From: an uncultured Poribacteria bacterium
GTDB taxonomy: Bacteria; Poribacteria; WGA-4E; WGA-3G
Direction of reading: 5' to 3'
Assembly (NCBI GenBank): GCA_951813565.1
Contig: OX638351.1
Span: 3,680,001 to 3,744,000, forward strand
Length of the DNA stretch: 64,000 nucleotides
Of the stretch, positions 307 to 63,771 are shown piece by piece (the first letter of the stretch is position 1; the number at the start of each line of letters is the position of its first letter). The position numbers and the translations under genes were made by a program. The notes beneath the pieces are model-generated. The model ran no database searches. It was not told the DNA's origin and saw only the letters and a list, made by a program, of their open reading frames with translations.

Positions 307-494
307 TACCATTTCTAAAAAATGAGACTTCATTGTGAAATTATCGGTTCAAGCTGTTGAAGAATGTCCGAGGCGCCAAATGCCAAACGCGCATTTGGCG
401 TTGATTTGGCAATGAATTGCGCTTGGTGAATGTACGTATGACATTCACATTAAACGGGTTTTTGTTAATGAAAGGCGATCAATTAGAAATGTTA
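307..494. mobile_element. MITE with TACCATTTCT termini and TAA target duplication
   Basis: TAA|taccatttctaa...ttagaaatgtta|TAA; near-identical inverted copy at 22693-22860. Confidence 0.8.
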
Positions 495-1686: not shown

Positions 1687-2005
1687 ACAGTTTCCTCCAC
1701 AAATCGGTAAAATCCACAGATAGTATAGCACAAATTGCGAATTGGATGCATAAAATATTCAAGTAGAACAGGGCATTCAATTGTCAAGTTTTCTAATCCA
1801 AAAATAAAAATTAGCGTTTCCGAAGGTTAAAAGAGGCGACGAATGCCATAAGCGCATTTGGCGTTGATTTGGCAATAAATGCACATAGTGAATGTGCGTC
1901 CGACATTCACATTAAACACTTTTGTTGTTAAAGCGGGCTTACAAAGTTCTCCCACAAGAGGACTCAGCGACAATTGAATGGTTCTGCCAAAACTTTACAC
2001 ACCCC

Positions 2006-17531: not shown

Positions 17532-17604
17532 GTAAGCGCTCAGTAAAGTGTATCGTTAATCATAAATCTGCTATATCGTTTGTAGTTATATATTCATTTT
17601 GAAA

Positions 17605-18846: not shown

Positions 18847-19030
18847 TAATACCTGTTTTGACTGATGATTCTCATTAACAAAAGACGCGTTTGTAGTCGA
18901 GCAATTCATTGCGCCTCTTCCTGTGAATCAACGCCAAATAAGTGTTTGGTATTTGTCGGGAGCGAGTTCCAGCTCGCGACTTTACCGAGAAATGGCAAAA
19001 AACGCGGAAACTAAATAGCCTTATGGATGC

Positions 19031-19852
19031 ATGAATGGAACAAGAGCCGTGGAAAAACTTGGCATTATCGCAGGAGCAGGTGAACTTCCAATCCTTGTTG
19101 CGAAAAACGCGGCAGCACAAGGACGAAAACCGATAATCATACAGATCACAAAAACGGATGAACAACGTTTTACTGAAATACAGTGTGAAGTCCATTCTTA
19201 CGGTGTAGGACAGATCCAGAAAATAACACAGAAACTTCTCGATTTAAACATAAAAGAACTCGTCGTAATTGGAAAAATTGAGCCAAGTATCTTGTTACGT
19301 CCCTTCCAAGTTGATGCAACCGCACTCAAGATTTTGGCACAGAATCGTAGCCAAAGCCCCACCTCACTCGTTTCAGCAGTCCTTGAACACTTTCAAAACG
19401 CGGGACTCTCTATCCTAAATCAAGATCATTTTCTATTTGATTTATTACCTGAACCCGGTGTACTCACAAAACGCAAACCGAATGATGCACAGTGGGACGA
19501 TATAAAAATGGGCATAGCGATAGCACGACAGATAGCGAACCTTGATATTGGACAAACTGTTATCATCAAAAATCAGATTATTCTTGCGATTGAGGCTATT
19601 GAAGGAACAGATGCCACAATTTATAGAGGTGGAGACTTAGGTGGGAAAGGCGTTGTGGTTGCCAAAGCCGCATCTGAAAACCACGATTTTCGTATTGATG
19701 TCCCAACAGTAGGTATGCAAACACTTCAGACACTGCATGCTGTCAAAGGAAGCGTTTTGGCAGTTGAAGCAAGACGAACCTTTGTTATGGAGCCAGAGAT
19801 CCTATTTGAACAGGCTGACCGTTGGAAGATTTCGATTGTTGCTGTGGAATAA
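19031..19852 (+). CDS. lpxI: UDP-2,3-diacylglucosamine diphosphatase LpxI
   Basis: LGIIAGAGELP, DIGQTV, AIEAIEGTD, DFRIDVPTVG. Confidence 0.92.
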   Translation: MNGTRAVEKLGIIAGAGELPILVAKNAAAQGRKPIIIQITKTDEQRFTEIQCEVHSYGVGQIQKITQKLLDLNIKELVVIGKIEPSILLRPFQVDATALKILAQNRSQSPTSLVSAVLEHFQNAGLSILNQDHFLFDLLPEPGVLTKRKPNDAQWDDIKMGIAIARQIANLDIGQTVIIKNQIILAIEAIEGTDATIYRGGDLGGKGVVVAKAASENHDFRIDVPTVGMQTLQTLHAVKGSVLAVEARRTFVMEPEILFEQADRWKISIVAVE

Positions 19853-19911
19853 CGAATTCTAAAAGTTATTTGATAAGATAGGTGTAGACACCATCGGAAT
19901 CTGAATAATAT

Positions 19912-19940
19912 TTGACAAACAAAATCGTATATGGTATTAT
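19912..19940 (+). promoter_or_regulatory. sigma70-type promoter for ferredoxin
   Basis: TTGACA-17-TATTAT with extended -10 TG. Confidence 0.55.
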
Positions 19941-20010
19941 TGAAGTTAGAATAGCCCAACGCTCATGAGGCGAAATTGGTATAAAGTCTAACGAAAGGAG
20001 AATTTATACA

Positions 20011-20274
20011 ATGACTTATGTAATTTGTGAGCCTTGTATTGACCTCAAGGACAACGCTTGTGTTGATGTTTGCCCGGTGGACTGCATTCATCCGCATCCA
20101 ACTGATGCTCCCGACGAATATGAAGAGGTGAATCAACTGTTTATCGACCCCGAAGAATGCATCGATTGTAGTGTGTGTGAACCGGAATGTCCCGTTGAAG
20201 CGATCTTTATGGAAGAAGATGTCCCTGAAGAATGGGAACATTTCACACAAATCAATGCAGATTACTTTCTTTAA
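20011..20274 (+). CDS. FdxA-type (7Fe/8Fe) ferredoxin
   Basis: MTYVI.EPC..KD.ACVDVCPVDCI...IDPEECIDC..CEP.CPV.AI; AAGGAG RBS. Confidence 0.95.
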   Translation: MTYVICEPCIDLKDNACVDVCPVDCIHPHPTDAPDEYEEVNQLFIDPEECIDCSVCEPECPVEAIFMEEDVPEEWEHFTQINADYFL

Positions 20275-20355
20275 TCTCAAAAAGAGGGCGAACGGGTTTG
20301 TTAATTAGGTTTCCTTATCTAACGTCCTGAAAATTAACATCCGTTTTGACTCCAA

Positions 20356-20670
20356 ATGCTGGAATTTCAACCCACCGAAATCAAACGTTTGCCGCATAGT
20401 TTATCAATTCAATGGAAGGATGGACATCGGAGTGAACACACATACCGATTACTCCGAGAGAGTTGTCCGTGTGCACGGTGTGATGCGATAAGACAAGAAA
20501 ATGACCCGTTTAGGATGGTACCATCGGAAGAATATTGGGAAAAATTACATTTGGTGGGGATTCAACGTGTTGGACGCTATGCTATACAGTTAATGTGGAG
20601 CGACGGACACAAGACTGGAATTTATACATTCACCTTTTTACGCGAACTCTCTGACTCAAAGGTTACTTAA
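20356..20670 (+). CDS. DUF971 / GBBH-like N-terminal domain protein
   Basis: W.DGH...LR..CPCA.C...VG.YA....WSDGH.TGIY. Confidence 0.92.
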   Translation: MLEFQPTEIKRLPHSLSIQWKDGHRSEHTYRLLRESCPCARCDAIRQENDPFRMVPSEEYWEKLHLVGIQRVGRYAIQLMWSDGHKTGIYTFTFLRELSDSKVT

Positions 20671-20727
20671 GTCACTTTTCTCGCCTCTTTCAACCTGCCA
20701 GTTTTTTTAATCATGATCAATCTAACA

Positions 20728-21333
20728 TTACTCCTCTAACAACTGGGCAACCAAATAACAGTTAGGTGTTTTCTGAACAGCACCGAGTGCCTCGCTAAGT
20801 TTTTTGCACCTTTGCCAATAGTCGGCATACTTCACAGGTTCATAGTTTTTACGTTGTCCGATGAAAGTTTTTTTACAGCAAGCCAATTCCTTGCCGTTAT
20901 CAATTGGATAGCCCCATACACGACATATCACTGGGCGATGTTCATAAACAGAGCATACTCCACCAATAAGCATCGGACATTCGCCAGAAGTTTTCCCTTT
21001 GACCACTTCAATCGCTTCTATACCTGAATCTTTTATCATATTTTCAGCGGTATAACCCTCCGCTTCTAATACTTTGATAGTCCGCTGTGCTTTTTGACGA
21101 ATATGTTCGCGTATCTGTTTTGGAAGTGCGTCCAATGCGGTTTTGAGATCGCGTGCTTCCACTTCACTAATTGGTATTGTTGAAGTGTTAAGGCAGCATT
21201 GAAAACAATTTGTCGGACAAGGAACCCGACCGTATTCTTCTCGTACCCGTTGCACATCTCTATCAATTTCCGCAACAAGTTCGTGATAGACAGTCATTAC
21301 ATGTTCAATTACCTGTTCAGGTTGCGTTTCCAT
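20728..21333 (-). CDS. YkgJ-family cysteine cluster (CxxCxxCC) protein
   Basis: CPTNCFQCC, CPML...CSVYEHRPVICR; GAGGAG RBS. Confidence 0.88.
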   Translation of the reverse strand: METQPEQVIEHVMTVYHELVAEIDRDVQRVREEYGRVPCPTNCFQCCLNTSTIPISEVEARDLKTALDALPKQIREHIRQKAQRTIKVLEAEGYTAENMIKDSGIEAIEVVKGKTSGECPMLIGGVCSVYEHRPVICRVWGYPIDNGKELACCKKTFIGQRKNYEPVKYADYWQRCKKLSEALGAVQKTPNCYLVAQLLEE

Positions 21334-22267
21334 CTTGTTTCTCCTCTTCAACAACAGTAAACTCACAGATAGCATGTCGAAAAACTACGACCTTAGAACC
21401 GTTTTTCAACACCATTTTGATTTCATACGGACTGATCCAGTCAACTGTGCCTTGAAAAATTTCGCCTTCACGAAGGATTATTTCAATTGAATTCCCATCT
21501 TTCCGAGCGTGCCGAATTGTTTCTGGATCAATGATATATCCTTCATCTTGAGAGAGAGCGGGTTTGAGTTGTTTCGCTTTAATGTCTTCATTATAGCGAA
21601 GAAGCGCAATTACGTTTTCTGCGTCAACGTCCTTATAGCAATACTTCACCTCAGTTTTTGGTACAATTTTTTCCTTACCGTTACAATTAAGTGTTAATCC
21701 TGAAAGCGTCATTTCTAACACAATAGCAGGCAATTGTACATCATTATAAAGCGCAAAAAACATCGGTGTTTCAAAATTAATTTGCTTAAGGATATATAGG
21801 TCACCGAAACTAAGTTGTCTGGAAGTTTGTTCCTTCTCTTCTGTTACCGTTTCGGTTTGTGTGGTAGAACTTTCACTTTGAGGTCGTTTTCGCGATTGTT
21901 CTTGTGTATATTTAGCATTCGTATTAGAATCCTTGTCCTTTGTTTTATCGGAAAACGACTTATCTTCATCAAAGAACTGATCCTGATTTTGGGCTGGAAA
22001 TCCAGAGTAGCCGCGTGGAATAATAGTTTTACCTTGTCGTAACCACCTTCGTTCTGTCGGTGTTAGCAACACTTCAACGTTTTTAGCGACTAAACCTTTT
22101 TCGCCTTCAACAACGCTATACTTTACGCGTTGCCCAACCCGAAGTTCCTCGTATTCTGCATACTTAATCGCGGAACTATGTAAGAAGACATCTTCCTCAC
22201 TGCTATCTTGTGCGATAAATCCGAATCCTTTATCCAAATTGTAATACTTAATTCGTCCTGTAGGCAT
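21317..22267 (-). CDS. Cold-shock-domain protein with two C-terminal Hfq/Sm-like domains
   Basis: N-terminal KGFGFI/VFLH RNP motifs; C-terminal VVFRHAICEF resembles Hfq YKHAIST. Confidence 0.8.
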   Translation of the reverse strand: MPTGRIKYYNLDKGFGFIAQDSSEEDVFLHSSAIKYAEYEELRVGQRVKYSVVEGEKGLVAKNVEVLLTPTERRWLRQGKTIIPRGYSGFPAQNQDQFFDEDKSFSDKTKDKDSNTNAKYTQEQSRKRPQSESSTTQTETVTEEKEQTSRQLSFGDLYILKQINFETPMFFALYNDVQLPAIVLEMTLSGLTLNCNGKEKIVPKTEVKYCYKDVDAENVIALLRYNEDIKAKQLKPALSQDEGYIIDPETIRHARKDGNSIEIILREGEIFQGTVDWISPYEIKMVLKNGSKVVVFRHAICEFTVVEEEKQDGNAT

Positions 22268-22692
22268 TATCTGCTCCTGGGTTTTTCCTCCGCATCGGGA
22301 AGATGCCTATAACCATTCGCGTTCCTGCGCCCAGCATTTAATTGTGGCTGCCTCAAAATGATTAAAAATCTGAAAACAACAAAATAGTACACAACGAGAA
22401 TTTGCCTCGCAACTGAATTGTATGTTTCTTTTGACATAACAACACTTTTTATCTATAATGTAAGCATAGACGTTCTGAACGTTTAAACGTAAATGTCTAC
22501 TTTTTTCTATATCGAATCTTGCTGGAAACAAGAAAACATTTCAAGGCATACTATAGTACATCATAATCTAATGTATTTGTCAAGTATGATTTTTTATTTA
22601 ACATAATTATTCCATAATTCAACCACTTTGACGGAAAACAACTTTCCACCTTGCCCGACCACTACACTGCATCTTAGGAAACAACAAACTAA

Positions 22693-22860
22693 TACCATTT
22701 CTATTTGATCGCCTTTCATTTACAAAAAACACGTTTGTAGTCGCGCAATTCATTGCCAAATCAACGCCAAATGCGCGTTTGGCATTTGGCGCCTCGGACA
22801 TTCTTCAACTCAGCTTGAACCGATAATTTCACAATGAAGTCTCATTTTTGAGAAATGGTA
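22693..22860. mobile_element. MITE, inverted copy of 307-494, TAA target duplication
   Basis: TAA|taccatttct...agaaatggta|TAA. Confidence 0.8.
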
Positions 22861-22863
22861 TAA

Positions 22864-23088
22864 TACCAAATTACCCTAAATCGTAGGGGCGGGTCTCTGT
22901 GCCCGCCCTTACCATCGGCAATGAAAACAATGCAATTCTCGTTAATTTGGTATAAGATGTCGCGAGCTGGAGCTCGCTCCTACAGGAAGAAGGAAGTAAT
23001 ACCAAATTACCCTAAATCGTAGGGGCGGGTCTCTGTGCCCGCCCTTACCATCGGCAATGAAAACAATGCAATTCTCGTTAATTTGGTA
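22864..23088. mobile_element. Two identical 89-bp MITEs (22864-22952 and 23000-23088) with TACCAAATT termini and TAA duplications, each carrying a GTAGGGGCGGG REP
   Basis: Direct comparison of the two copies; a further REP lies between them. Confidence 0.85.
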
Positions 23089-23138
23089 TAACTCATTCCT
23101 AACGCCTACTATTCAAAAGTCTACATAAGGAGAATTTC

Positions 23139-24428
23139 ATGGCAACAGATTTGACACATCACATTCAGTCTATCCGTTTAGTTGATACACATGAACACAT
23201 GCGGCGTGAAAACGACTGGGTAGAGAATGGTCCCGATATCTTGCAAGACCTATTCGGAAATTATGTGCCAGCAGACCTACATACCGCCGGTGCTACGCCA
23301 CAGGCAATGGAAAATCTGATGGACTCATCTAAAGACATCAAGTCACGGTTTGAAGGTGTCCGAGAAGCATGGGAAGCGACACAATTTACTGGATACGGCG
23401 AAGCAGTCAGTCTTATCGCTAAACATATCTACGGACTTGACGAACTGACTGGTGATGGACTTGCTCAGGCACAAGATAAACTCAAGACAATTCGCACTCC
23501 CGGAAAACGTTATCATATTTTACACGACCTTGCGAATTTAGACCATATCCAAACAGATGATTTCAGCTGGCCGTGTACCCTCGACACCTCTGGCCCCGAT
23601 TTTTTCTTATACGATCTTTCATGGGCAACTTTCTGCAATGGTCAAATTGATCCGAATGCTATCCATGCTGAAACGGGTATTGAAGTCAAGGACCTCGCGT
23701 CGTTGAAAAGCGGCATGGAGGCGATTTTTGCCAAACATGCCTCCTGCGCAATCGCAGTAAAAGCACAACACGCTTACAACCGTACACTTCACTGGATCGA
23801 ACGGAGTGATGCCGATGCTTCCGCAGCGCTCAATGCAGTGCTAATAAAACCAGCCAAAGAAATTGATGAAGCAACACGTCTTTGTCTTGGCGATTGGTGT
23901 TGGGCACGTGGTGTTGAACTCACAATTGAACACAATCTCCCGTTCAAAATACATACTGGCTACTATGCAGGCAACAATCGGATGCCGTTAAGCCGTATTC
24001 CAGCAGGCAATATGTGTGCCTTATTTGCTCGCTATCTGGATGCAAAGTTTGTTCTAATGCACATTGCATATCCCTACAACGATGAATTGGTAGCACTTGC
24101 AAAGCACTATCGCAACATTTGGGTTGATTTTTGCTGGGCATGGAGTATAGACCCTTATAGTTCGCGCGATTTTTTGCGTCGGTGCATTCATGCGGTACCA
24201 TCAAATAAGTTGTTTGCCTTTGGAGGCGATACTGGATGGCCTACAAGTGCAATGGCTTATGCAATTCAGGCACGAAACGAAATTCGACGTGCGCTTGAAG
24301 CCGAAATAGCAGATGGATATCTTACCGAAAAACAAGCGATGACGTTTGCTACGCAGATTATGCATACAAATCAGTACGCTTGCTTTGATGTCAACGGCAC
24401 CCGTGCTAATATTGCCAAAGCAGCATAG
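23139..24428 (+). CDS. Amidohydrolase superfamily protein (uronate-isomerase-like)
   Basis: VDTHEH, KIHTG, LMHIAYPY, FAFGGD. Confidence 0.85.
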   Translation: MATDLTHHIQSIRLVDTHEHMRRENDWVENGPDILQDLFGNYVPADLHTAGATPQAMENLMDSSKDIKSRFEGVREAWEATQFTGYGEAVSLIAKHIYGLDELTGDGLAQAQDKLKTIRTPGKRYHILHDLANLDHIQTDDFSWPCTLDTSGPDFFLYDLSWATFCNGQIDPNAIHAETGIEVKDLASLKSGMEAIFAKHASCAIAVKAQHAYNRTLHWIERSDADASAALNAVLIKPAKEIDEATRLCLGDWCWARGVELTIEHNLPFKIHTGYYAGNNRMPLSRIPAGNMCALFARYLDAKFVLMHIAYPYNDELVALAKHYRNIWVDFCWAWSIDPYSSRDFLRRCIHAVPSNKLFAFGGDTGWPTSAMAYAIQARNEIRRALEAEIADGYLTEKQAMTFATQIMHTNQYACFDVNGTRANIAKAA

Positions 24429-24533
24429 TGCTACTGAGCTTACAATTAAATCTAAAAGTACCGATACATTTTCGGTGCTTGTAGTCGCGCAATTCATCGC
24501 GCCTCTTACATTTACAGTAATGCGTTGAAATTA

Positions 24534-24643
24534 TAGTAAAATTCACAATTACCTTTACATTGGCGAGGTTAGGAAACCTCGCCAGCGCATGCGTGTGGGA
24601 ATTGCTGTTCATTGAAATGTGAACATATTATTGGATTTTACTA
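24534..24643. mobile_element. IS630-type MITE, TA-flanked, carrying a REP-like hairpin
   Basis: TA|tagtaaaattcacaatta...tattattggattttacta|TA; termini resemble those of the IS630 element at 48392. Confidence 0.7.
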
Positions 24644-24693
24644 TAAAAGTGGACCGAAATATATTCATAATTATGTGTTTTCTATAAACGTAA

Positions 24694-25734
24694 TTACGAG
24701 TCGCGCAATTCCTTCAAGCTTTCTGTATAAGGCGCGTGTGCTACACCCTTTTCGGTAATAATTGCCGTGACTAATGAAGCTGGTGTAACGTCAAAAGCAG
24801 GGCTATAGACCTTTACACCCTTAGGTGCGGTCAACTTGCCGAAGCCTTCTGTCACCTCTTCTGCTGAACGTTGCTCAATCGGAATCTCTGCACCGGTTGC
24901 CAGTGCAAAATCTAACGTTGATGTCGGGGCAGCGACATAAAAAGGGATGTCGTGTGCCTGTGCAAGAATGGCAACATTATAGGTGCCGATTTTGTTCGCA
25001 GTGTCTCCGTTTGCAGCAATCCGATCTGCACCAACAATAACGCACTGGATTTTACCCTCTTTCATAACTTGCGCAGCCATATTATCACAGATAAGTGTTA
25101 CGTCAATGCCTGCTTGCATTAGTTCCCACGTTGTAAGGCGTGCACCTTGTAACAAGGGGCGTGTCTCATCAGCGTAAACCTGAATCTGCTTACCAGCTTC
25201 GTGTGCACTGAACATTACGGCTAACGCTGTGCCGTAGTCGGACGTGGCTAATCCACCAGCATTACAATGCGTCAAAATCGTATCGTTTTCATTGAGCAAT
25301 GCCATACCGTGTTGCCCAATAGCACGGCACATCGCTTTATCCTCTTCAATAATTTTCTCTGCCTCTGCAAGCAGTACCGCTTTGAGTTCAGAGACAGAAA
25401 GATGACTATTTTCTTCAGCTGTTTTTGTAATTCTATCAAGTGCCCAAAAGAGATTAACAGCTGTTGGTCGGGACGTTGCAAGATAATCGGTTGCAGATTT
25501 TAGTTCTGCTGCAAATGTTTCATAAGTTTTCGCAGTGGAATTCCATATCCCAAGCACTGCACCCAATGCCCCAGCGATGCCAATTGCGGGCGCACCTCGG
25601 ACGCGCAATGATTTAATCGCCTCCCAAATAGATGGGAGGTCATCACAATAAATCTGTTTGAATTCATTGGGCAACAGTGTTTGATCTATTAACTTAATCC
25701 TACCGTCTGCCCATTCAATTGTTGAAACTGCCAT
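24694..25734 (-). CDS. mtnA: S-methyl-5-thioribose-1-phosphate isomerase
   Basis: VRGAPAIG, SRPTAVNL, THCNAG.LAT, ETRP.LQGARLT, ANKIGTY. Confidence 0.96.
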   Translation of the reverse strand: MAVSTIEWADGRIKLIDQTLLPNEFKQIYCDDLPSIWEAIKSLRVRGAPAIGIAGALGAVLGIWNSTAKTYETFAAELKSATDYLATSRPTAVNLFWALDRITKTAEENSHLSVSELKAVLLAEAEKIIEEDKAMCRAIGQHGMALLNENDTILTHCNAGGLATSDYGTALAVMFSAHEAGKQIQVYADETRPLLQGARLTTWELMQAGIDVTLICDNMAAQVMKEGKIQCVIVGADRIAANGDTANKIGTYNVAILAQAHDIPFYVAAPTSTLDFALATGAEIPIEQRSAEEVTEGFGKLTAPKGVKVYSPAFDVTPASLVTAIITEKGVAHAPYTESLKELRDS

Positions 25735-25940
25735 TTTTGCGTTAGTATCCTCCTCTTATAGTGAAACCCATAATTATTTTTACGTTCTTATTCTTATGTG
25801 GATTTCAAACACAAGATAAATTTAAGAGGCGCAATGAATTGCGCGACTACAAACACCGCTAACCGTCAGAAACGAAATTGCTGGATTATCTCTTGTAGGA
25901 AGGTTTACAAAGCTTTCCACCACCCCTGGTAGGCGCGTTT

Positions 25941-26850
25941 TGTAAACGCGCCGTTTATTGTGTCTTAGGTCTGGGCCCGGCGCGTTTACAAAACACCAAA
26001 TCAACGCTATGAATGCCTTTATGGCATTCCCCGTATGGCATGCTGCCAAATCAACGCAGCATGCGCCAAATCAAGAAATCAACGGTATGAATCATGGCGA
26101 ATCATGTAGAATACCAAAAGCGTATTCTACCAAGCGCATTCGTCTTTAGTCATTCACCGGGTATGAATGCCTTATGGCATTCCCCGTATGGCATTTGTCG
26201 GGACTAAAGAGTGTGTCCGCAACGTTTTCTATAAACATATCGTCCCTACGGGACTAAGGAAAATACCGAATTTATTTTTTAATCTTCATGTAAACGCGCC
26301 GTTTATTGTGTCTTAGGTCTGGGTCCGGCGCGTTTACAAAACACCAAATCAACGCTATGAATGCCTTATACCAAATTCATTTGATTCATCGTCTTTACAT
26401 ACCGCTCCGCTGGAGCGGAAGACAGAAAACTCCACGTGCTATAAACATACCGCTCCGCTGGAGCGGAAGAGTAGAAAAAACACTGGAAAAACAAGACGAA
26501 TTCCGTTAATTTGGTATTATGGCATTCCCCGTATGGCATGCTGCCAAATCAACGCAGCATGCGCCAAATCAACGCTATGAATGCCTTATGGCATTCCCCG
26601 TCCGGCATGCTGCCAAATCAACGCAGCATGCGCCAAATCAACGCTATGAATGCCTTATGGCATTCCCCGTCCGGCATTCATCCAAATCAACGCAGCATGC
26701 GCGTATGGCATGCTGCCAAATCAACGCTGAATGCGCGTGTAGGCATTCAGCGGGGTTGAAAACCCGCCAAATGCCAAAAAGCGCATTTGGCGTTGATTCA
26801 CTCCCACAAGAAAGTGTATTCTTAAGTTGACACTTATGGGTAGAGCGAAA
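25941..26850. repeat. Composite nested hairpin/MITE repeat region including a 69-bp tandem unit
   Basis: Direct repeat starting at 25941 and 26289; 69-bp period from 26517; several AATCAAC hairpins. Confidence 0.85.
26369..26516. mobile_element. MITE with TACCAAATT termini and TTA duplication, inserted in a hairpin loop
   Basis: gaatgcc TTA|taccaaatt...aatttggta|TTA tggcattc; uninterrupted allele at about 26011-26030. Confidence 0.85.
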
Positions 26851-26888
26851 CACACACCCATCAAATCCATAACTCATCTTTGCGATCA

Positions 26889-28526
26889 TCAAATTGGGCA
26901 GGTCAACTGACCAAGTTCATTCGTTAACCGAAGGTTTTCAGCATAATTTACCGGACAATCAATAACCGAAGGCACATTTTGACTGAATGCATCTTTTAAT
27001 ATTGGAACAAGCTCGTCGCTGCCTTCAACTCGATAACCTTTAGCTCCAAAAGCATCTGCGTACTTGACAAAATCAGGATTTGTGAAATCAATGTATGCTG
27101 GCCTACCAAAACCGTTCATCTGTTTCCATTCAATCAGTCCATAAGCTTCATCGTTGAAGATGAGTGTAACAAACGGCACACCTGTTCGTGTAGCCGTTTC
27201 AAGTTCCTGAGAGTTCATCAAGAATCCACCATCACCGCACACGGCGAGACATTTCCGCTCCGGATAGATGAGTTTTGCTACGAAAGCACCCGGAACAGCG
27301 ATGCCCATAGACGCAAACCCATTTGAAATAATGCATGTATTCGGTTGAGAACACGGATACATACGGGCAATCCACATTTTATGTGCACCAACATCGGAGA
27401 TGAGTATATCGTCTTCTGCGAGTACGGAACGGATATCGCTTAAGATTTTTTGCGGTTTCATCGGGAACTCTTTATCATCGCGATGCTCAGTAAGTTGATC
27501 GAGAATTATTTTCCGCAAGGTGTTTGAAGCATACTCAGAATCTTTTGGATAAATTTCTTGTGCCATTAAATGCCTGATACTCTGTCTAATATTCCCCACC
27601 ATTTCCACATCAGTAACATAAGATGCATCGCTTTCGCTCGGTTCTGTATCAATATGGATCAGTTTTTTGTCGTGATTAGGATTCCATAAGCGCGGATGGT
27701 ATTCCACAATATCGTACCCGATAGCGATGACGAGGTCTGCCCGGTCGAACCCGCATGAGACAAAATCGTTTGCTTGAAGTCCAACGCTGAGGAGGGAGAG
27801 TCGGTGCGTCCACGGAATGCTGCCTTTGCCCATAAAAGTGTGCGCGACAGGGATATTTGTCATCTCGGCAAATTGCGTTAGAATTCGAGAAGCATTTTGG
27901 CGAACAACGCCATTCCCTGCAAGGATAATCGGTTGTTTTGCATCATTGATCAGTTGTGCTGCCCGTTGGAGACAGGACACCACAGGCTCTGCTTCACTGG
28001 GGAAATCATGCCGCATAGGTTCGGCTTCTATTTGCATCTTTGCCACGTCTTCTGGCAAGTCAATGTGTGTTGCGCCAGGTTTTTCACCTACTGCAGTTTT
28101 GAAGGCTTTGCTGATTGATTCAGGAATAATTTCAGGTAGATGAACAAGCGTATTCCATTTTGTCATCGGTTTGAAGACTGAAACCACGTCCATGTATTGA
28201 TGCGATTCTTTGTGCATTCTGTCTAAACTCGCTTGCCCTGTGATAGCAACGAGAGGTGCTCTATCCATATTCGCATCAGCAACACCAGTTACAAGGTTCA
28301 TTGCACCGGGGCCAAGTGTAGCAAGACATACTCCTGCCCTACCAGTTAGACGACCGTAGACATCTGCCATGAATGCGGCACCGCGTTCATCGCGTGTTTG
28401 AATGAATTGGATCTTGGATTCTAACAGAGCATCCATCAAATCCATATTCTCTTCACCCGGTATTCCAAAAATATATTCAACGTCCTCATTCTCCAAACAT
28501 TTCACAATCAGTTCTGATGCTTTCAT
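26889..28526 (-). CDS. Acetolactate synthase large subunit (ThDP-dependent)
   Basis: FGIPGEEN, TLGPGA.N, GDGGFLMNSQE ThDP motif; AGGAG RBS. Confidence 0.93.
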   Translation of the reverse strand: MKASELIVKCLENEDVEYIFGIPGEENMDLMDALLESKIQFIQTRDERGAAFMADVYGRLTGRAGVCLATLGPGAMNLVTGVADANMDRAPLVAITGQASLDRMHKESHQYMDVVSVFKPMTKWNTLVHLPEIIPESISKAFKTAVGEKPGATHIDLPEDVAKMQIEAEPMRHDFPSEAEPVVSCLQRAAQLINDAKQPIILAGNGVVRQNASRILTQFAEMTNIPVAHTFMGKGSIPWTHRLSLLSVGLQANDFVSCGFDRADLVIAIGYDIVEYHPRLWNPNHDKKLIHIDTEPSESDASYVTDVEMVGNIRQSIRHLMAQEIYPKDSEYASNTLRKIILDQLTEHRDDKEFPMKPQKILSDIRSVLAEDDILISDVGAHKMWIARMYPCSQPNTCIISNGFASMGIAVPGAFVAKLIYPERKCLAVCGDGGFLMNSQELETATRTGVPFVTLIFNDEAYGLIEWKQMNGFGRPAYIDFTNPDFVKYADAFGAKGYRVEGSDELVPILKDAFSQNVPSVIDCPVNYAENLRLTNELGQLTCPI

Positions 28527-28729
28527 GGTATTACTCCTGAGCACAGCGATAAAAGTTGTTTTTCCTACGCGGATTCAATACAATTAACTATAACAGATTA
28601 AATTTGAAATTGCAATTTTATTGGTTCGTAATAACGCATTCATCACCATTTAAGATTACATTTTACTTTTCTGAAGAAAAAACAGTAGGTTCACAACAAA
28701 AAGGATTAAACGGAAGGTTTTGCTAATCT

Positions 28730-31700
28730 ATGAGGAATTATTCTATTTATTTTTATTTTATTATACTTCTAATATGTTTGCTGAGTAGTATCACGACCAA
28801 GGCTTCAGAACAAATTATCGGTTCATCTCAAACCGATTCAGATTCACATAATCTCTATGAGATAACCCACACACCAAGAGAACTCGTTGTCCGTTTACAT
28901 TCCACTACCTCTTTTGTGCAGTTCAGGGCATTCAGCAAAAAATTAGGTGCAGCATCCGTTTCCCCTGTTTTTCCTCCAACTACTCCTGCGGGGCGACATC
29001 CGTTGCTCAATCGTATTTATCTCGTCCGATTTCCTACCATTTCGCAGTTAGAACAGTTGAAGCAAAAGTATGCGGAACATGCATTAGTTGAAGACGTTGA
29101 AATGAACAGACTCAACCGGTTCTGTGCAGAGACGATCCCTAACGACCCACGATATAATGAACAGTGGAATCTGAAGGCGATGAATTTGCCAAAAGCATGG
29201 CGCATTGAACAGGGAAAACCAAATGTGGTTGTAGCAGTTGTGGATAGCGGTATAAAGAAAGAACATCCTGAGTTTCGTAATCAGCTTTGGCGGAACCATG
29301 GCGAAATTGCTGATAATGGCATTGATGACGATGGAAACGGCTACATTGACGATATTAACGGGTGGGATTTTAGCGATGCACCCACACTCCCAGGACACGG
29401 TGATTGGAAAGAGCGCGATAACGAACCCGATGATGAGACGGGGCACGGCACACATGTTTCTGGAATTATCGCTGCGGAGACAAATAACGGTCTCGGAATT
29501 GCTGGGATCGCTTGGCAGTGTCGTCTGATGCCGCTACGAGCGGGATTTCGGATTGGTGCAGGCGCGTTCCTACAAAATGATGATGTCGCTGCAGCTATTG
29601 TTTATGCCGCTGATAACGGTGCTGATGTTATCAATCTGAGTTTAGGGGATACTGTGAACGCATTTTTAATTCAAGATGCAGTTGATTACGCCTACAATCG
29701 CGGGTGTATCCTTGTTGGTGCTGCCGGAAATTCGCCGGAGCCAGGAGCGTATTATCCTGCTGCGTTGAACACCGTCCTATCTGTTGCTTCGCTGGATAGA
29801 AATCTCCAATTGGGAAACTCCAATTTCGGTGCATCAATAGATATCGCTGCACCAGGTGAAGAAATTTTGAGCACGGATCTCAATACTGGTCAATCTTCTC
29901 CTGGATACGGATATAATTACCGATCTGGCACTTCAATGGCTGCAGCGCATATCTCTGGTGTCGTGGCGTTGTTGGTTTCTGCGAATCCATCGTGCAGCCA
30001 TACAGAAATTCAGCAATGGTTGACGGGTACGGCGAGAGAACTGTCCATAACACATCTCGTGGGAGCAGGACTTGTTGATGCCTACGCTGCATTGACAGAA
30101 CATATCGGACTCACCGCGCATATTACTATTACACCGCCCTCGCAAACTGAAGTATCAGGGAATAACAGCACGATTGAGATTTTTGGGAGTGCTGGAGGCT
30201 CTGGATTTACACAATATTGGCTTGAATACGGTGTTACCGAAACACCTGACCTCTGGTTTCGTATAGGGTTTCCGCAAACCGAACCGAAGTATAACACCGT
30301 TCTTCACGAGTGGGATACCTCAGCGTTGGAGGAAGGCACTTACACATTACGTCTTAGCGTTAAGGCTAAAGATGGAAAATCTATCAGAGACAAAATAGTT
30401 GTTGAAATCTATCATACGCTTCCCCGAATTTCCAAACATGAAGCAGGGATATGGCTTTCAGGAAACTATTATGATACGACTATTATTTGGCAGACAGATG
30501 TGCTAACTGCTGGGGCAGTTGAAATCTTTTCAAAAACAGAAAATCACACAATTATATCCAATAATTCACCGCTACGGGTTGCGCGTTCGGATTCGGTGAA
30601 TCTTCAGCATATCGTTTATTTGTCCGAGTTAGGGTTACCGTCAGGTGAATACATGTACCGTCTGAAGACACAAAACCAAACTGGGGTTATACGGATTGAT
30701 GATAATGAGAGGCAATTATATCCGATTACAGTGCGCGACGAACAAATTCAACCATCTCATCTACTTCAAACAACGTCTGCACAGTTCGGTTTGCACGGGA
30801 TTGTAACATCTAAAGATATAAACGGAAATGGGAAGTTAGAACTGATCGCTGTCGAAACAGGCACATCTTCTACCCATGTTTTTGAAACAGATCAAAATGG
30901 AAATCCAGTAATGATTTTTTTATTAAATCAACCAGTATCGCGACTATGGGCAACCGCAGACACAGATGGTGATGGACTCATAGAACTTTTAGCCAACGAA
31001 TCAGAAGATACATTTTTATTAGAACAATCTGCACCAGGGCAATTCCCGAACGTGCGAATCTGGGATGCTGAGGGAATTTGGGGTGGAACGATCGCGGATT
31101 TGGATTTGGACGGTAAACCAGAAATCTTTTCACGTCATGATGCCACAGATTCTATCTGGGTCTACGAATCAGACGCAAATAACAGTCATAACAACATTGC
31201 AATACTTGAAAATCCAACGCAAGGAAAAAACAAGATTCCAACAAGATTCGCCACGGGTGATTTTGATGCGGATGGACAGAGAGAAATTTTAGCGGGAGAT
31301 AATGATGGCTCACTATTTATATATGAAAATGTGGGAAATAACCAATACCAACAAACGTGGATTGGCACACTTCCGGATGTTATACCGCATCTTTTTGCCG
31401 CGGGAGATTTGGACGGTGATGACATCCCAGAATTTGTTGTTGGTGCAAAGGTTTGGACAACAGAATTTGATCTTCCGCGTCAACATTGGCTTTTTACAAT
31501 TTTCACATCAAACGGCAACGATTCCTATGATATAGTATGGCATCAACGAATTCGCGAACTTCAAGATGGTGAAAGTGGAATAACAATTGCGGACGCTAAC
31601 AACGATGGTAGAAATGAATTGTGTATCGCTGTTTCCCCAAACTTTTACCTCGTTCAATATGATGGGATTACTTTCCGTCCTATTTGGCATCATCCCGCAA

Positions 31701-32470
31701 CCAGTACATTCAATCCAATTGTCGCTGATATTGATAACGATAATAACAATGAATTGCTGTTTAATACTGAAGGCGCGTTGAGCATTTTTAAGAATTCTCA
31801 CGGTAATGTCTCACAAAGTGAAAGCGGCGAAGTTTCAAGTCAATCTGATCCAGTATCTGTCATTCCGACTGCACCGCCGCAAATGACTTCAGCTGTCTAT
31901 TCTCCACCACATCAACTCCTATTAACGTTTAACAAACCGATGCATATTACTGTAGCAAGCCCTTCGCGTTACCAGCTGCACAGACAAAAAAAGCAGGACG
32001 GCAGCGGAACAGAAGTTAGTAACACGGATAAATATGTGCCGCAATCTGCTATTTTTGATAGATCACGCAAAAGGGTCGTGTTAACGTTTTCTACTAATGT
32101 ATTCAATGCAGATAACTATTATGAGATTGAAACGTTTCAACTTTCCGACATATATGGAACTGAGATTCCTAAAGACAAAGGAACGTTGGCGGTAGAATTT
32201 CCTATACAATCTCACGTAGAAATGATTGTTTATCCAAATCCTGCACGAAATAATCAAGTTACGTTTGATAGATTACCTGCAGGTAGCAGTGTTTACATTT
32301 ACGATGTGTCGGGGAACCGTATCGCATCCCTTATTCCAACTGAAGATGACATAGCAGGGAATAGGTGCAGAAAAGTCTGGTCGTTAGATGGAGTCAGCAG
32401 TGGTGTGTATATTTATGTATTAGAAACTGAAACGGGGCAGCAGGTTGGTAAACTTTCTGTTATTCGATAA
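28730..32470 (+). CDS. Secreted S8 (subtilisin-like) protease with FG-GAP-type repeats and a C-terminal YPNP sorting-like domain
   Basis: Signal peptide; VAVVDSG / HGTHVSG / SGTSMA triad; repeated D.DGDG..E; VYPNP...IYDVSG...SSGVYIY tail. Confidence 0.9.
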   Translation: MRNYSIYFYFIILLICLLSSITTKASEQIIGSSQTDSDSHNLYEITHTPRELVVRLHSTTSFVQFRAFSKKLGAASVSPVFPPTTPAGRHPLLNRIYLVRFPTISQLEQLKQKYAEHALVEDVEMNRLNRFCAETIPNDPRYNEQWNLKAMNLPKAWRIEQGKPNVVVAVVDSGIKKEHPEFRNQLWRNHGEIADNGIDDDGNGYIDDINGWDFSDAPTLPGHGDWKERDNEPDDETGHGTHVSGIIAAETNNGLGIAGIAWQCRLMPLRAGFRIGAGAFLQNDDVAAAIVYAADNGADVINLSLGDTVNAFLIQDAVDYAYNRGCILVGAAGNSPEPGAYYPAALNTVLSVASLDRNLQLGNSNFGASIDIAAPGEEILSTDLNTGQSSPGYGYNYRSGTSMAAAHISGVVALLVSANPSCSHTEIQQWLTGTARELSITHLVGAGLVDAYAALTEHIGLTAHITITPPSQTEVSGNNSTIEIFGSAGGSGFTQYWLEYGVTETPDLWFRIGFPQTEPKYNTVLHEWDTSALEEGTYTLRLSVKAKDGKSIRDKIVVEIYHTLPRISKHEAGIWLSGNYYDTTIIWQTDVLTAGAVEIFSKTENHTIISNNSPLRVARSDSVNLQHIVYLSELGLPSGEYMYRLKTQNQTGVIRIDDNERQLYPITVRDEQIQPSHLLQTTSAQFGLHGIVTSKDINGNGKLELIAVETGTSSTHVFETDQNGNPVMIFLLNQPVSRLWATADTDGDGLIELLANESEDTFLLEQSAPGQFPNVRIWDAEGIWGGTIADLDLDGKPEIFSRHDATDSIWVYESDANNSHNNIAILENPTQGKNKIPTRFATGDFDADGQREILAGDNDGSLFIYENVGNNQYQQTWIGTLPDVIPHLFAAGDLDGDDIPEFVVGAKVWTTEFDLPRQHWLFTIFTSNGNDSYDIVWHQRIRELQDGESGITIADANNDGRNELCIAVSPNFYLVQYDGITFRPIWHHPATSTFNPIVADIDNDNNNELLFNTEGALSIFKNSHGNVSQSESGEVSSQSDPVSVIPTAPPQMTSAVYSPPHQLLLTFNKPMHITVASPSRYQLHRQKKQDGSGTEVSNTDKYVPQSAIFDRSRKRVVLTFSTNVFNADNYYEIETFQLSDIYGTEIPKDKGTLAVEFPIQSHVEMIVYPNPARNNQVTFDRLPAGSSVYIYDVSGNRIASLIPTEDDIAGNRCRKVWSLDGVSSGVYIYVLETETGQQVGKLSVIR

Positions 32471-32548
32471 ATTTATAGTAAGTCTATATTTTACCAACCG
32501 TAGGCGCGATTTTAAATCACGCCTACAAGAGAGTGTTTTTATATTTTA

Positions 32549-33058
32549 ACGTGAACTTGATAATTAGAATGAATATAAATGTCCGTTGGGTAGAGCGAAG
32601 CGAAACCCATAAATCAACACTATGAATGCCTGAATCAACGCCAAATGCGCCTGTGGCATTTGGCGCATGCTGCGTTGATTTGGATTTTCTGCTTGAATCT
32701 CGTTCAATCGGGCGGACAAGGTCTCCCTCCCACAATGTCTGAGTATTCTATCGGGCTTAGAAAGCCCTCCCACAATGTCTGAGTATTCTATCGGGCTTAG
32801 AAAGCCCTCCCACAAGAAAAAATCCAGCATTTTTTTCTTAAGTTTACACCTATGGGTAGAGCGAAGCGAAACCCAACAATTCAACCGTCTTGAGAGTCCT
32901 AAAGAGTTGGGTTTCACTTATTTTTTCGGAAATATCGTCCTCAATAGCTCAACAACCTCTCTTTACGGTCTGTTTTTATTGTCCATTTCCGTTCTACCCC
33001 ACCGAATGCCATAGGCGCATTCGGTGTTGATTCCCTACGGGATTTATCAAACTCACGT
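32549..33058. mobile_element. TA-flanked MITE shell (ACGTGA-type termini) containing nested elements
   Basis: TA|acgtgaacttgataa...ttatcaaactcacgt|TA. Confidence 0.7.
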
Positions 33059-33135
33059 TATTTTAAATTCTATTACGTTGCAAATCAAAGAATATCTTGA
33101 GAAGGGCAACCAAACTGAAACACAATCAGTCCGAA

Positions 33136-35019
33136 TTACTTTTTTATCCCGCGTAGATTTAGAAATGAGGAACTGAAACGAGGAATTTTCTGAGAATCTG
33201 TCTCGTAAATATGAGATAAGACACCTAATATTCCTGGTCGTGATTTCCTTGTATGGCGCATCTTTTTTACAAGTGCGTTTTGAATAACTTTAGCACCTAT
33301 ATCCGGATGCTTAGATTGTTGGACGATCTCTGCCAAGTGATAGTGAGCCGGAACATAATCGCTTTGGAGTCGGATAGCTTGTTCTAAAACGTTTGTTGCC
33401 TTATTCAATCGACCACTCTTACCGATAACCCACCCCAACGTATCGTGATAAGAAGGAACATCCGAATTAAGCCTAACTGCGGCGTATGCAAGTGCTTCAG
33501 TAAGCAGATGTTTCTGCTGATACCCATCTGAATAGAGTTGCGCAAGATTGTTGTAGGCTTCTGCTTCGTTAGGGGCAATTTCTATGGCGGTTTCATACGC
33601 AAGCCGTGCTTTGTGAAGATGCCCAAGACGTTTGTACGCTGTACCGAGAATGTTATAGGTCTTATAATCGGATGAAACTTTCTTTTCGTGCGCCGCTCCG
33701 TTAGATGGATACGATGCTTCAGCAACAAATGGCTGATACACTTGAGTTCCCCGAGTCTGCAGATAGAATTCGTATGCCTCCACTGCAAGGGCGTATTGGT
33801 TTTCCTGAAAATGTGCAAATCCCAGATTCTTATATAAGACAGGATCCATTGAATCAATTCCTCGGATAAGTTCAAACATTTCAATTGCACTGCGGTAGTC
33901 CGATTGTTGTATGAAGAAACTTCCGGCATCTAAATAGTGTTGAGGATTTTCCACAAAAGCAATTTCTGTACTGGGAAGATACGGTGGGCGAGGACGCCGT
34001 TGCATTTGCGAATACACCAGGGCGACTGTTGCAGCAGCGAGCAAACAAAATAAGACAAGATAGAGCCGCGTGCGTGAGACCAATTGCTTTGAGAGATACG
34101 CATTAGGTCGCAACATAATAGCGAAAACGCTCGGATTAAATTTTTGATCCTCTTGTTCATAAATGACAACAGAAGTATTTGGGACCAGGACCGGTAGTGC
34201 AGGTGTAGAACTATGCTTATGAAGCGTTTTTACTTTTGGTGGTGAATCTTTGGGGGGATCAGTATCCTCTTTTATCTCGGTTGCGTAAGTTTCTGAAGAC
34301 GCTGCGGAGTCAGAGGGTTCTTCGGGTGTTGTTTCATCAGTTTTTGGTGTTTGTTCTATTACTAAATCAATTATCGGTGTTTCAATTTCCTCATCCGGAG
34401 GGATATTTTCTCCAGCATGAGGCAAGGGTTCGGCGGTATCTTCAATAATTAATTCATCAGAACTCGGTGACAACTCGTCGGAATAGTCTTCGCTTTCAAC
34501 TACGTTTTGGCTGGTAGTTGTTTGGTCCGACGTTGGTTGTTCTAATTCAAAATCGTATGAGTCGCTAAGATCCTGCGTATCTGGAGGATCGCTAATTTCC
34601 GCTGTCGTTTCTGCGGTGTCTGTTTCTGGATGTCTGGCGACGATTAGGTCTACGCTTTTCTGAACTTCCCTACGAGTTAAAGGTGAAACTTCTGTTCTTA
34701 AAAGAGATTCAAGTGTTGGCAGCGCATCTGCAGTACCTATGCTTCCAAGTGCTTCAATGAGAGTCCAGCGAGTTAAATCGCTATCTTCTTTTTTTAAGGC
34801 ATCTACAAGCGCGGATGTTGCCTCTGAGAAATTGCATTTCTGCAGTGCATTCGCTGCTTCGCGCCGCACACCAGAAGCAACATCGGACAACGCTTTCAGG
34901 AGAAAAGGCAGAACTGTGGTGCCGCCTATTTCTGCAATTTCTAAAACCGCTGCTCTACGAGTCGCTATTGGCTGCGAGGTATCTGTTATATTCTGTGTGA
35001 GTTTTTCAAATGATGCCAT
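33136..35019 (-). CDS. HEAT-repeat, acidic linker, single TM, TPR-repeat protein
   Basis: VRREAA.AL and R...IEALG.IG HEAT repeats; hydrophobic LYLVLFCLLAAATVALVY; YNNLA/LG.AY TPRs. Confidence 0.85.
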   Translation of the reverse strand: MASFEKLTQNITDTSQPIATRRAAVLEIAEIGGTTVLPFLLKALSDVASGVRREAANALQKCNFSEATSALVDALKKEDSDLTRWTLIEALGSIGTADALPTLESLLRTEVSPLTRREVQKSVDLIVARHPETDTAETTAEISDPPDTQDLSDSYDFELEQPTSDQTTTSQNVVESEDYSDELSPSSDELIIEDTAEPLPHAGENIPPDEEIETPIIDLVIEQTPKTDETTPEEPSDSAASSETYATEIKEDTDPPKDSPPKVKTLHKHSSTPALPVLVPNTSVVIYEQEDQKFNPSVFAIMLRPNAYLSKQLVSRTRLYLVLFCLLAAATVALVYSQMQRRPRPPYLPSTEIAFVENPQHYLDAGSFFIQQSDYRSAIEMFELIRGIDSMDPVLYKNLGFAHFQENQYALAVEAYEFYLQTRGTQVYQPFVAEASYPSNGAAHEKKVSSDYKTYNILGTAYKRLGHLHKARLAYETAIEIAPNEAEAYNNLAQLYSDGYQQKHLLTEALAYAAVRLNSDVPSYHDTLGWVIGKSGRLNKATNVLEQAIRLQSDYVPAHYHLAEIVQQSKHPDIGAKVIQNALVKKMRHTRKSRPGILGVLSHIYETDSQKIPRFSSSFLNLRGIKK

Positions 35020-35519
35020 AATTTATTTACAGGTACATCTTGTGCGTCCATTTACAGCATTGCAAATGGAACTGATACGATTCTCACATAATTTACTCTA
35101 ATATCTCTATTAGGTCGCACTGTGCTGAATCTGTATAAATGTTATTCCTAATAAAACGATTTCTTACGCAAAAAGATACACCTTTTGCCAATATCATCTC
35201 TTTACCCTTTATGTAGGTTGGGTTTCGCTTCGCTCTACCCATAACTGTCAACTTAGGGAAATATTTCTTGTGGGAGTGAGTCAACACCAATGCGCTTTTT
35301 GGCATTTGTCGGGCTTACCATAACTGTCAATTTAAGGTATTGAATCCGTTTTTAACGGTTGTTATAGCCTCGTAGAGGCGGTATGTTTATAGAAAAGGCG
35401 TTGTCCTGTGTTCTTGAACCTCGTAGAGGCGGTATGTGTATAACTTATATGTCGCTCCTACGGAGCTCAATCAGAAATATAGAAAACTAAAAACCCTGTC
35501 TCTCTTGACTATAATTGAC

Positions 35520-37239: not shown

Positions 37240-37242
37240 AGT

Positions 37243-40560: not shown

Positions 40561-41297
40561 GTTTTGTGTTAAGAACACAGTAGGATTTACATGTGTCTTA
40601 ATAAGGGTGATTTAGGGTAATCTATAGCATACAAGATACAGTAAGTTGACCTACACGCACAGTAGTACTTCCCACCCACAACAATATCTACTCTCTCAAA
40701 GGTTGATGCTGCTTCGGTAATATGTTTTTCCCAACTTGCAGAATTATGCAACCTTTTCCTCGCCATTCGCGTCACTATAGTGAACTTTGAAAATAAAGAG
40801 ACATATTTTCTGTAGGAGCGATCTCCGAATCGCGACGAATCTCACTGATAGTCGGGAATCGGAGTTCCCTCCCGCCAAATGCCAAACGCGCATTTGGCGT
40901 TGATTCACATCTCAAAATGTCTCGTTAATTCTAAAGCTTATACCATTTCTAAATTATAACTTCCCATTTACAAAAAACGCGTTTAATGTGAATGTCGGAC
41001 GCACATTCACCAAGCGCAATTCATTGCGCCTCTTATCAGGGTTATTTAGTTTTCTATATTACTGACGCATTTTATCACATGTGTTAATGCTTTATAATAG
41101 TATCGTCCGTTGGGTAGAGCAACAGCGAAACCCATAACTGTCAACTTAAGAAAAAATGCTGGATTTTCTCTTGTGGGAGGGGTTCGTGACAATTGAATGC
41201 CTCTGCCCTTAATAGTTACTACATTTGACTACTTTCCCCAAATATGGTATTATTTAAAAAATGAAAACTTGTTGTGCGTATTTCCGCACCTGTAAAG

Positions 41298-50587: not shown

Positions 50588-50777
50588 GGGCACCAAATCA
50601 ACGGTATGAATGCCTTATGGCATTCCCCGGGACCCCGCTCTACAGTGGAAAACGCCGCGTAATCATTGCAAATTGAACCTATGTAACCAAATATTTACAC
50701 ACCCATGTGAACAAAAAACGCGAGGTACAACAACCTCGCCCTACAAGTTTTCCAAGATTTGTATAATGGTTAATAGC

Positions 50778-63428: not shown

Positions 63429-63771
63429 TACAGTAAAATCTAAAAACACCTGGACATTTTCTTAAGGTTAGCGGCGTTTAATGTGAATGCCATACGGGGA
63501 ATGCCAAAAGGCATTCATACCCGGTGAATGACTAAAGACGAATGTGCTTGGTAGAATACGCTTTTGGTATTCTACATGATTCGCCATGATTCATACCGTT
63601 GATTTCTTGATTTGGCGCATTCACCAAGCGCAATTCATTGCCAAATCAACGCCAAGCGCACTTGGGCGAATACGCGTATGGTATTCGCCATGACTTGTCG
63701 CCTCGGACATTTATGGTGTGTTTGAAATCCGCATAAGAACAGAATGTCCAAATAATTATGGGTTTCACTAT
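63429..63771. repeat. IS630-type MITE shell filled with nested hairpins; inner ~130 bp is an inverted copy of about 26063-26195
   Basis: tacagtaaaatc...gggtttcactata termini; direct reverse-complement match. Confidence 0.75.

Follow-up and report, generated by a model that had tools for sequence, protein, structure and literature searches.

AATCAAC-tagged hairpins of 33-36 nt as very small mobile units in Candidatus Poribacteria

Can a hairpin of about 35 nt move independently, and if so, what moves it? The question is raised by a 64,000-nt stretch of DNA from an uncultured Poribacteria bacterium (hereafter, the window), which lies within a single 5.43-Mb contig of the genome that we call G000; G006 and similar handles denote the genomes of relatives. 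The first-pass annotation of the window had proposed that its AATCAAC-anchored hairpins are ultra-short elements, inserted without target duplication into REPs and into each other, and moved in trans by an HUH enzyme encoded elsewhere.

The hairpin unit and its copies

The unit is non-coding and 33-36 nt long, and consists of a variable head (CA, or a single G or A), the tag AATCAAC, a stem and a loop. Its hairpin has a 9-bp covarying stem, a 7-8-nt loop and a closing G paired with the last C of the tag. A G directly follows the 3' end of 803 of the 833 arrays in all loci examined; this base closes the stem and seems to be part of the unit rather than of the target. Among the 121 site clusters described below, a pyrimidine stands at position -2 in 108, a purine at position -1 in 115 and a G after the stem in 107. 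The spacer between neighbouring units is CA in 151 of 154 pairs. Positions in the stem covary across 220 distinct simple units, with 178, 190 and 190 paired where shuffling gave means of 104, 107 and 137; these counts should not be read as probabilities because the units are related and were chosen partly on their arms. Folding of representative units gave a hairpin on either strand (z -2.8 to -3.6), and no Rfam score for the unit came near the gathering threshold. Simple and bulged units both occur in G000 (436 and 178, respectively, in the loose call). In genus g9 (e.g. G147, G109 and G123), the typical unit variant has a left arm that is one base longer.

In the window, AATCAACG occurs 26 times against 3.79 expected, and none of 100 shuffles reached 26. 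All 11 stretches listed in the first-pass annotation are present to within 1-2 bases. The copies are given below, where class I denotes a clean insertion of a CA-headed unit at C^G, and class II a left junction with loss of 1-4 target bases beside a fixed right junction.

375..408, minus strand: CA-headed simple unit, 34 nt, class I; empty host present 35 times
1838..1871, minus strand: CA-headed simple unit, 34 nt, in a diverged copy of the host REP of 375..408; no copies of the exact empty host
18925..18958, plus strand: class II unit, G-unit-G replacing A in the GTAG tag of a RAYT-type REP (host GTAGG, filled GTG-unit-GGG)
22757..22790, plus strand: CA-headed simple unit, 34 nt, class I; same host as 375..408, empty 35 times
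25997..26032, plus strand: bulged-type unit, 36 nt (CA head, AATCAAC, hairpin), then the right half of an A-type host hairpin
26047..26199, plus strand: nested composite of an A-type left arm, a bulged unit split within its own tag by a GA-headed composite (26075-26159), and a closing hybrid right arm
directly after 26047..26199: right half of a GTCCCTACGGGAC-type REP
26345..26369, plus strand: truncated bulged-type unit
26545..26613, plus strand: A-type host unit, its loop split by the insert 26565-26599
26565..26599, plus strand: bulged-type unit, 35 nt, clean class I at C^G of the host loop; exact empty allele present 17 times in the genome
26614..26682, plus strand: 69-bp tandem duplicate of host and insert (insert at 26634-26668)
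26683..26716, plus strand: uninterrupted A-type unit, 34 nt
26717..26751, plus strand: simple unit, 35 nt, head-to-tail tandem, then G and a REP hairpin
26766..26800, minus strand: TG-headed simple unit, 35 nt, clean in a GTGG-tagged REP; empty host present 11 times
32631..32682, both strands: TG-headed simple unit back to back with an opposite-strand A-type unit, a truncated bulged unit lying just upstream
33001..33034, minus strand: GG-headed simple unit with a compensated stem, one of 23 copies amplified on one host; absent from the first-pass list
35277..35309, plus strand: degenerate unit (AGTCAAC head) in a GTGG-tagged REP
40873..40906, minus strand: class II-type unit in a REP, at its GTAG tag; no copies of the exact empty host
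50594..50628, plus strand: bulged-type unit, 35 nt, in a REP loop; clean removal would give a host one base shorter than the lone empty copy
63480..63710 (limits approximate), both strands: multi-level nested composite with units on both strands

The region 25995-26800 is a nest in which bulged units occupy A-type loops, one host with its insert is duplicated in tandem, other units follow head to tail, and a GTGG-tagged REP holds a unit on the opposite strand. The reading of 26565-26599 as an ultra-short unit sitting in the loop of another hairpin was borne out, since it splits an A-type host between the GC and GTCCG of the loop. The hairpin at 26691-26715, which had been taken for the same host in its empty state, has a different loop (GCGTATG), whereas the exact empty allele is found elsewhere in the genome in the 17 copies noted above. 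The inserts at 26565-26599 and 26634-26668 represent one insertion that was duplicated together with its host as a 69-bp tandem repeat (family D7).

Loose calling in G000 gave 614 units in 523 arrays, and a strict filter gave 577 units and 486 arrays in 121 site clusters, so that the total is about 580 units at about 110-120 (108-121) distinct site types. Single units account for 465 of the 523 arrays, the remainder being head-to-tail. The largest site classes hold 60, 49, 29 and 23 copies, each class with one common host, and co-amplification therefore explains much of the unit count; much of the copy number arose after insertion, by amplification with the host repeat and by array slippage. 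Only 28 of the 614 loosely called units, many of them by chance, lie in ORFs of at least 150 aa, which make up 81% of the genome, and the unit is a high-copy, mostly extragenic palindrome in the 20-50-nt range by which REPs are recognized. Strand bias was not significant (262 of 486 arrays, p 0.09; GC skew is too weak to place the origin or terminus), and orientation relative to transcription showed no clear bias.

A degenerate pattern of the unit matches 85 of the 103 genomes of the family, with a maximum of 434 matches in G000. Outside the family, two of 47 genomes from other families in the order and one of 17 beyond the order (20-genome test) gave a single match each, and the reversed-pattern control gave 0-1 matches. 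Among the matches listed in a scan of genomes, 79 of 80 loci belong to Ca. Poribacteria, and viral contigs gave no unit matches. The bearers of the unit are a family of sponge-symbiont bacteria.

Filled and empty sites, junctions and targets

The unit is a real and very small mobile hairpin that is family-wide; it has two junction classes, both reproducible, and uses sites recurrently. The idea of very short, non-autonomous single-hairpin units that move independently is supported by filled and empty orthologues in genes, by a recurrent site and by the 108-121 site classes, and we regard it as highly probable that the unit is a genuine independent mobile element. Within G000, an exact empty site exists for 243 of 488 simple units, in 208 cases by removing the sequence from head through stem. 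In addition, five non-repeat (coding or unique) sites were resolved across species, each filled in some relatives and empty in others. A lipoate-ligase-like gene has gained 36 nt in frame in G000, G006 and G102, and is empty in 11 of 13 congener loci. A second gene, at G000:1292617, carries an extra 33 nt in G000 and G006 and is empty in four congeners; near the start of a 320-aa ORF at G000:4444600, 33 nt are present in G000 and G102 and absent from G152, the three genomes that could be resolved there of six. The fourth site lies in an ISAs1 transposase. Three G000 copies of this gene are filled, as is that of G063, which holds a different variant of the unit, and 12 of 13 other loci are empty. 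The flanks of the filled G063 copy are 99.3% identical over 140 nt to an empty copy in G012, and the nearest empty copy to those of G000 is in G006 (94%); therefore, these look like two events at one site.

The fifth site, in a gene of genus g9, carries an extra 30 nt in seven of 30 loci. In the gene tree, the filled alleles require at least three changes and fall in three clades, and a single clade was rejected (p-AU 4.7e-10). For two of these three groups, a single gain with later losses is an alternative, and filled alleles may also have passed between species by patch transfer. At four of the five non-repeat sites, every filled allele is in frame, as selection would require; the exception is the G063 transposase copy (+35).

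The site classes of 60, 49, 29 and 23 copies on common hosts could also be taken to mean that units are fixed parts of larger mosaic repeats and spread only with them. However, the single-copy genes with empty orthologues, together with 19 arrays that have unique DNA on either side, contradict this as a full explanation, and we give it almost no probability.

Comparison within the species covered contigs from four of nine listed runs, over window positions 17600-37500. There the right junction at 18926 (unit 18925..18958), the sole readable site in contigs that break at repeats, is filled in all four conspecific runs, and none of 15 joints (of 108) in conspecific contigs skips exactly one unit. 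Neither a circle nor an excision product was observed in contigs. We also compared intergenic orthologues with congeners (about 85% identity), among which turnover of the host repeats leaves the window's own sites with no orthologous empty state. Of six small orthologue searches, two gave a usable junction. Separately, window 19852-19906 is strain-variable: one contig of run X2 has about 2.07 kb extra, a contig of run X1 departs at 19852, and runs X6 and X8 match the window.

We next consider the junctions. The set comprised 361 contexts, 178 of them with an empty homologue; after dereplication there were 131, of which 72 were resolved and 59 were not. The resolved contexts include 30 clean class I insertions, seven clean insertions with another head, and 35 that are not clean (37 versus 35). 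Thus, the first-pass claim of precise insertion without duplication stands as regards duplication, since the target is nowhere seen duplicated (at most, one base is ambiguous), and precision is confined to about half of the resolved contexts. In the commonest non-clean form (13 contexts), G-unit-G stands in place of one A. Fourteen other contexts lose 2-4 bases, five swap a single A or C for a two-base head, and three add unit-G after A. Class I sites share only the C^G itself (G follows in 45 of 51 CA-headed clusters), other positions being variable, and the unit's own head end has no constant final dinucleotide.

The class II change from GTAGG to GTG-unit-GGG occurred repeatedly in REP tags and destroys the tag. 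Within G000, three REP families have 325 empty copies with (G/A)TAGG and none with (G/A)TGGG, against 23 filled copies with GTG-unit-GGG and none with GTA; these counts led us to reject, for the three families, the notion that class II merely reflects GTGG host variants. Five REP families of relatives gave 463 empty A forms against one G form, with 35 filled copies. Copies within a family may share ancestry, and therefore the number of events is nearer to the number of contexts. Loss of target bases is also seen in coding sites (the g9 gene and G000:1292617); the A replaced at each of the two +33 coding sites is in a wobble position, where the ancestral base may have been G. Taken together, the lack of duplication, a fixed right end and a base-losing left end contradict a strict IS200/IS605 reading.

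The targets are REPs of several RAYT families, the unit itself (as head-to-tail arrays and in loops), and genes when the frame survives; insertions lie in the loop, in a stem arm, ahead of the hairpin, within the GTAG tag or within the unit's own tag. The suggested preference for other hairpins was upheld in a moderate form by a fold energy test at 108 sites. Empty sites, as reconstructed, have a median fold energy of -5.3 kcal/mol, a stronger fold than the -3.7 kcal/mol of matched intergenic controls (p 2e-6), and 42% of the 108 sites have a fold energy of -6 or lower, compared with 24% of 500 controls. The preference is not absolute because plain coding sites are also hit: four coding targets gave unremarkable folds of -3.5 to -5.5 kcal/mol. 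Given that about 31% of the intergenic DNA is itself repeated, and that frameshifting insertions in genes are purged, part of the apparent preference for REPs reflects survival.

Candidate enzymes and routes of insertion

A TnpA or RAYT gene flanked by the same hairpin, as the first-pass annotation had envisaged, was not found: the 74 Y1 hits, a number that counts duplicates and fragments and includes metagenome loci, comprise 16 with a unit on one side, no more than 500 nt away, and none flanked on both sides. The congener sample consisted of 60 regions from lower-scoring matches, and represents a part of the genus's Y1 loci from which congener TnpA loci are mostly left out. The Y1 hits mostly sort by subfamily, each subfamily with its own different REP. 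Five TnpA genes of the IS200/IS605 type, four of them next to TnpB, are present in G000 together with five other Y1 genes, and other repeats occupy their flanks; by eye, the ends of the five TnpA loci show no likeness to the unit, and a home-made Y1 profile found no further Y1 gene in this genome. Y1 genes occur in 36 of 40 genomes of the genus, including all nine highest-copy genomes, and unit copy number does not correlate with Y1 count (Spearman 0.18, p 0.29, 38 genomes). No Y1 match was obtained in G023 (one contig, 49 unit matches) or G010 (26 unit matches).

Other enzymes were also considered. IS110 gave no matches in G000. No mobile-element enzyme other than cas1 was recognized, by eye from the N-terminal sequence, among ORFs flanked by units on either side or among the neighbours of the longest arrays. 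The idea of a master locus was rejected: 30 loci of low-copy genomes are scattered old insertions with no common neighbour gene. As side observations, one of the two reverse transcriptase (RT) genes of G000 lies beside cas1 and a CRISPR array (G000:C1:3988991-3996000), with RT matches of similar size in several congeners, and the other is a stand-alone gene of 515 aa (G000:C1:811737-813281), which resembles a defence-type RT.

As the mover, we tentatively favour resident RAYT-type enzymes that would act in trans by Y1 HUH strand transfer, at a probability somewhat short of even. The unit would travel as a folded single strand, which a Y1 HUH enzyme supplied in trans would cut and join. This activity would most likely come not from a dedicated gene but from the resident RAYT-type enzymes as they act at their own REPs. 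Each junction would result from a strand-transfer step of its own; with two cuts made separately, a few of the bases between them could be lost from the target. We favour this reading because of the tagged hairpin, the lack of duplication, the modest preference for hairpin targets, the concentration in REPs, and the fit of the cut positions to CT and CC. On the opposite strand, class II cuts fall after CT and most class I cuts after CC, and PMC8266576 describes one TnpA-REP that cleaves at CT and CC with GTAG and GTGG guides. The cut positions of the unit would match this cleavage, which does not cover the variability of the head. A further idea is a four-base guide, AACG, for which the expected cuts on the tag strand would lie after CG and CT; this fits some class II junctions and not class I. 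Against a RAYT or HUH mover stand the lack of any Y1 gene flanked on both sides, the absence of copy-number tracking, and the unit-bearing genomes without a Y1 match (G023 and G010). Loss of target bases, which is not expected in conservative IS200/IS605-type transfer, also counts against it. In a bolder form of the same proposal, one hairpin of 33 nt would be sufficient as a mobile substrate; it would hijack the RAYT enzymes of other repeats, land where these cut, and overwrite the GTAG guide by replacement-type strand transfer. We consider this rather doubtful; to our knowledge, such a transfer has not been described for HUH enzymes. If it is true, then the unit would be a minimal REP parasite and the first natural record of single-hairpin insertion products, with a target choice precise enough to strike one gene nucleotide repeatedly.

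The ragged left junction could also arise from RNA. In this route, a stable RNA fragment ending at the base of the hairpin would be copied into nicked DNA by a reverse transcriptase (target-primed). The junction at the RNA 3' end would then be exact, the 5' junction would be ragged, with small deletions, and the heads would vary. The exact right and variable left junctions, the purine-start heads and a 3' end at the stem base agree with this, and an RNA route has reportedly been proposed for the Nostoc SDRs. However, six of the nine highest-copy genomes, including the single-contig G017, have no RVT_1 match, and RT presence is not associated with unit copy number (p 0.98, 38 genomes; many RT matches are on short contigs that may be host DNA). 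The two RTs of G000 are the one beside cas1 and the CRISPR array and one other, and mismatches favour G.T on the opposite strand (86 versus 45, confounded by hybrid arms), so that we see this route as somewhat unlikely. Small deletions are also typical of repair, and host replication or repair alone might copy the unit where forks stall or hairpins form, through template switching or the capture of single strands. The finding of no linked gene accords with this, as do the ABABAB-type arrays and the 69-bp duplication, which show slippage. On the other hand, the right end fixed in 803 of 833 arrays, the tag conserved family-wide, the same A-to-G-unit-G outcome in 13 contexts and the repeated use of one gene nucleotide imply specific recognition, which makes repair alone an unlikely source.

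The mover might also be a dedicated HUH enzyme or other recombinase that is too divergent for PF01797 or survives in few lineages. One REP motif has 238 copies in G000, and its cognate Y1 subfamily, present in G003 and G041, was not detected in G000; therefore, repeats can outlast their enzyme here. CGTC REPs are likewise described in PMC3733652 as lacking a linked transposase. Nevertheless, the 30 single-copy loci in low-copy genomes reveal no master locus beside a common gene, no Y1 gene has units on both sides at any locus examined, metagenome loci included, and we judge a dedicated enzyme improbable. As for an integron-type tyrosine recombinase acting on the folded unit as a minimal attC-like site, the tag AATCAAC and its complement resemble what we take to be the attC core consensus with one mismatch, and a few double-headed copies of the unit exist. 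However, G000 has a single PF00589 (tyrosine recombinase) match and the junctions are not at the attC crossover position, and we regard this route as very unlikely.

Relation to known repeats

The SDRs of Nostocaceae, as Elhai et al. reportedly described them in 2008, are 21-27 nt long, nest in their own copies and have a covarying structure. The Poribacteria unit is similarly very short and lineage-restricted, with precise insertion into palindromes, nesting in its own copies and a covarying hairpin; SDR5 is described in a passage of PMC4390886 as inserting precisely into the palindrome HIP1. In contrast, and in a comparison drawn from the SDR description only, the unit belongs to a different phylum, is 33-36 nt long, and has two junction classes, one of which deletes target bases. 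The GTAG/CGTC-tagged REPs (Di Nocera 2013, PMC3733652) are reported there to have a tag and an 8-9-bp stem, with some families found in palindromes and in frame in genes. The unit shares with them a tag and a stem of similar size, insertion into palindromes and in frame into genes, and, with the CGTC type, the lack of a flanked transposase. However, its 7-nt tag (AATCAAC) is unrelated, it has no GT(A/G)G or CGTC foot tag, and it is mostly single or head-to-tail rather than in head-to-head dimers; it parasitises GTAG REPs and destroys their tag.

Like REPs and REPINs with a RAYT, the unit is a 5'-tagged hairpin with hundreds of extragenic copies, no duplication, and cuts that fit CT and CC, whereas no REPtron of AATCAAC units was found among the 74 Y1 hits. 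Unlike a REPIN or BIME, the moving unit is a single hairpin, including single units in genes, and not an inverted doublet; in a passage of PMC3116915, the doublet is argued to move and singlet excision is said not to have been found. With the non-autonomous derivatives of IS200/IS605, the unit shares the absence of target duplication, and a hairpin-based single-strand logic is plausible. It differs from them in having one hairpin instead of two subterminal ends and no conserved 4-5-nt target, in the loss of target bases in class II, and in ends that, by eye, are unlike those of the resident IS605-type copies. The unit therefore resembles the Nostoc SDRs and the tagged REPs without a linked transposase, and falls outside the definitions of IS200/IS605 derivatives and of GTAG/CGTC REPs with a RAYT. 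No title or abstract opening among the papers that literature searches listed describes it, and the supplementary REP tables of PMC6006769 and PMC3733652 could list a similar hairpin. Because similar tiny repeats are known, we do not propose a new category.

The spread of REP-sized repeats is described as unresolved in a passage of PMC8266576. The unit family offers what REPs rarely do, namely many filled and empty pairs, readable junctions, single-copy genes and a recurrent site, and with so many readable pairs the mechanism is directly testable with 35-base oligonucleotides and a few small enzymes. In-frame units add 10-12 residues to proteins, and thus provide a small route of protein change. 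If an enzyme does insert so short a cargo at chosen single-stranded sites, then it may be a useful tool.

Several further observations concern the same genomes. The Poribacteria of the genus of G000 have about ten Y1 subfamilies, each with its own REP family, which is an unusually rich set for studying guide and cleavage rules. G000 also carries internally deleted IS605-type copies that keep the left end (G000:C1:989523, 3243733, 3139188, 3438083, 4328636 and 870292), and the left-end motif of its IS605-type element has 27 copies in all. Window 22861-23091 holds a REP between two identical MITE-like palindromes of 95 nt, which are spaced 136 nt apart, and a further copy of this palindrome lies inside a deleted IS605-type remnant near G000:2684000. 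Finally, window 54185-59000 contains two long ORFs of many diverged repeats, which are presumably WD40-like.
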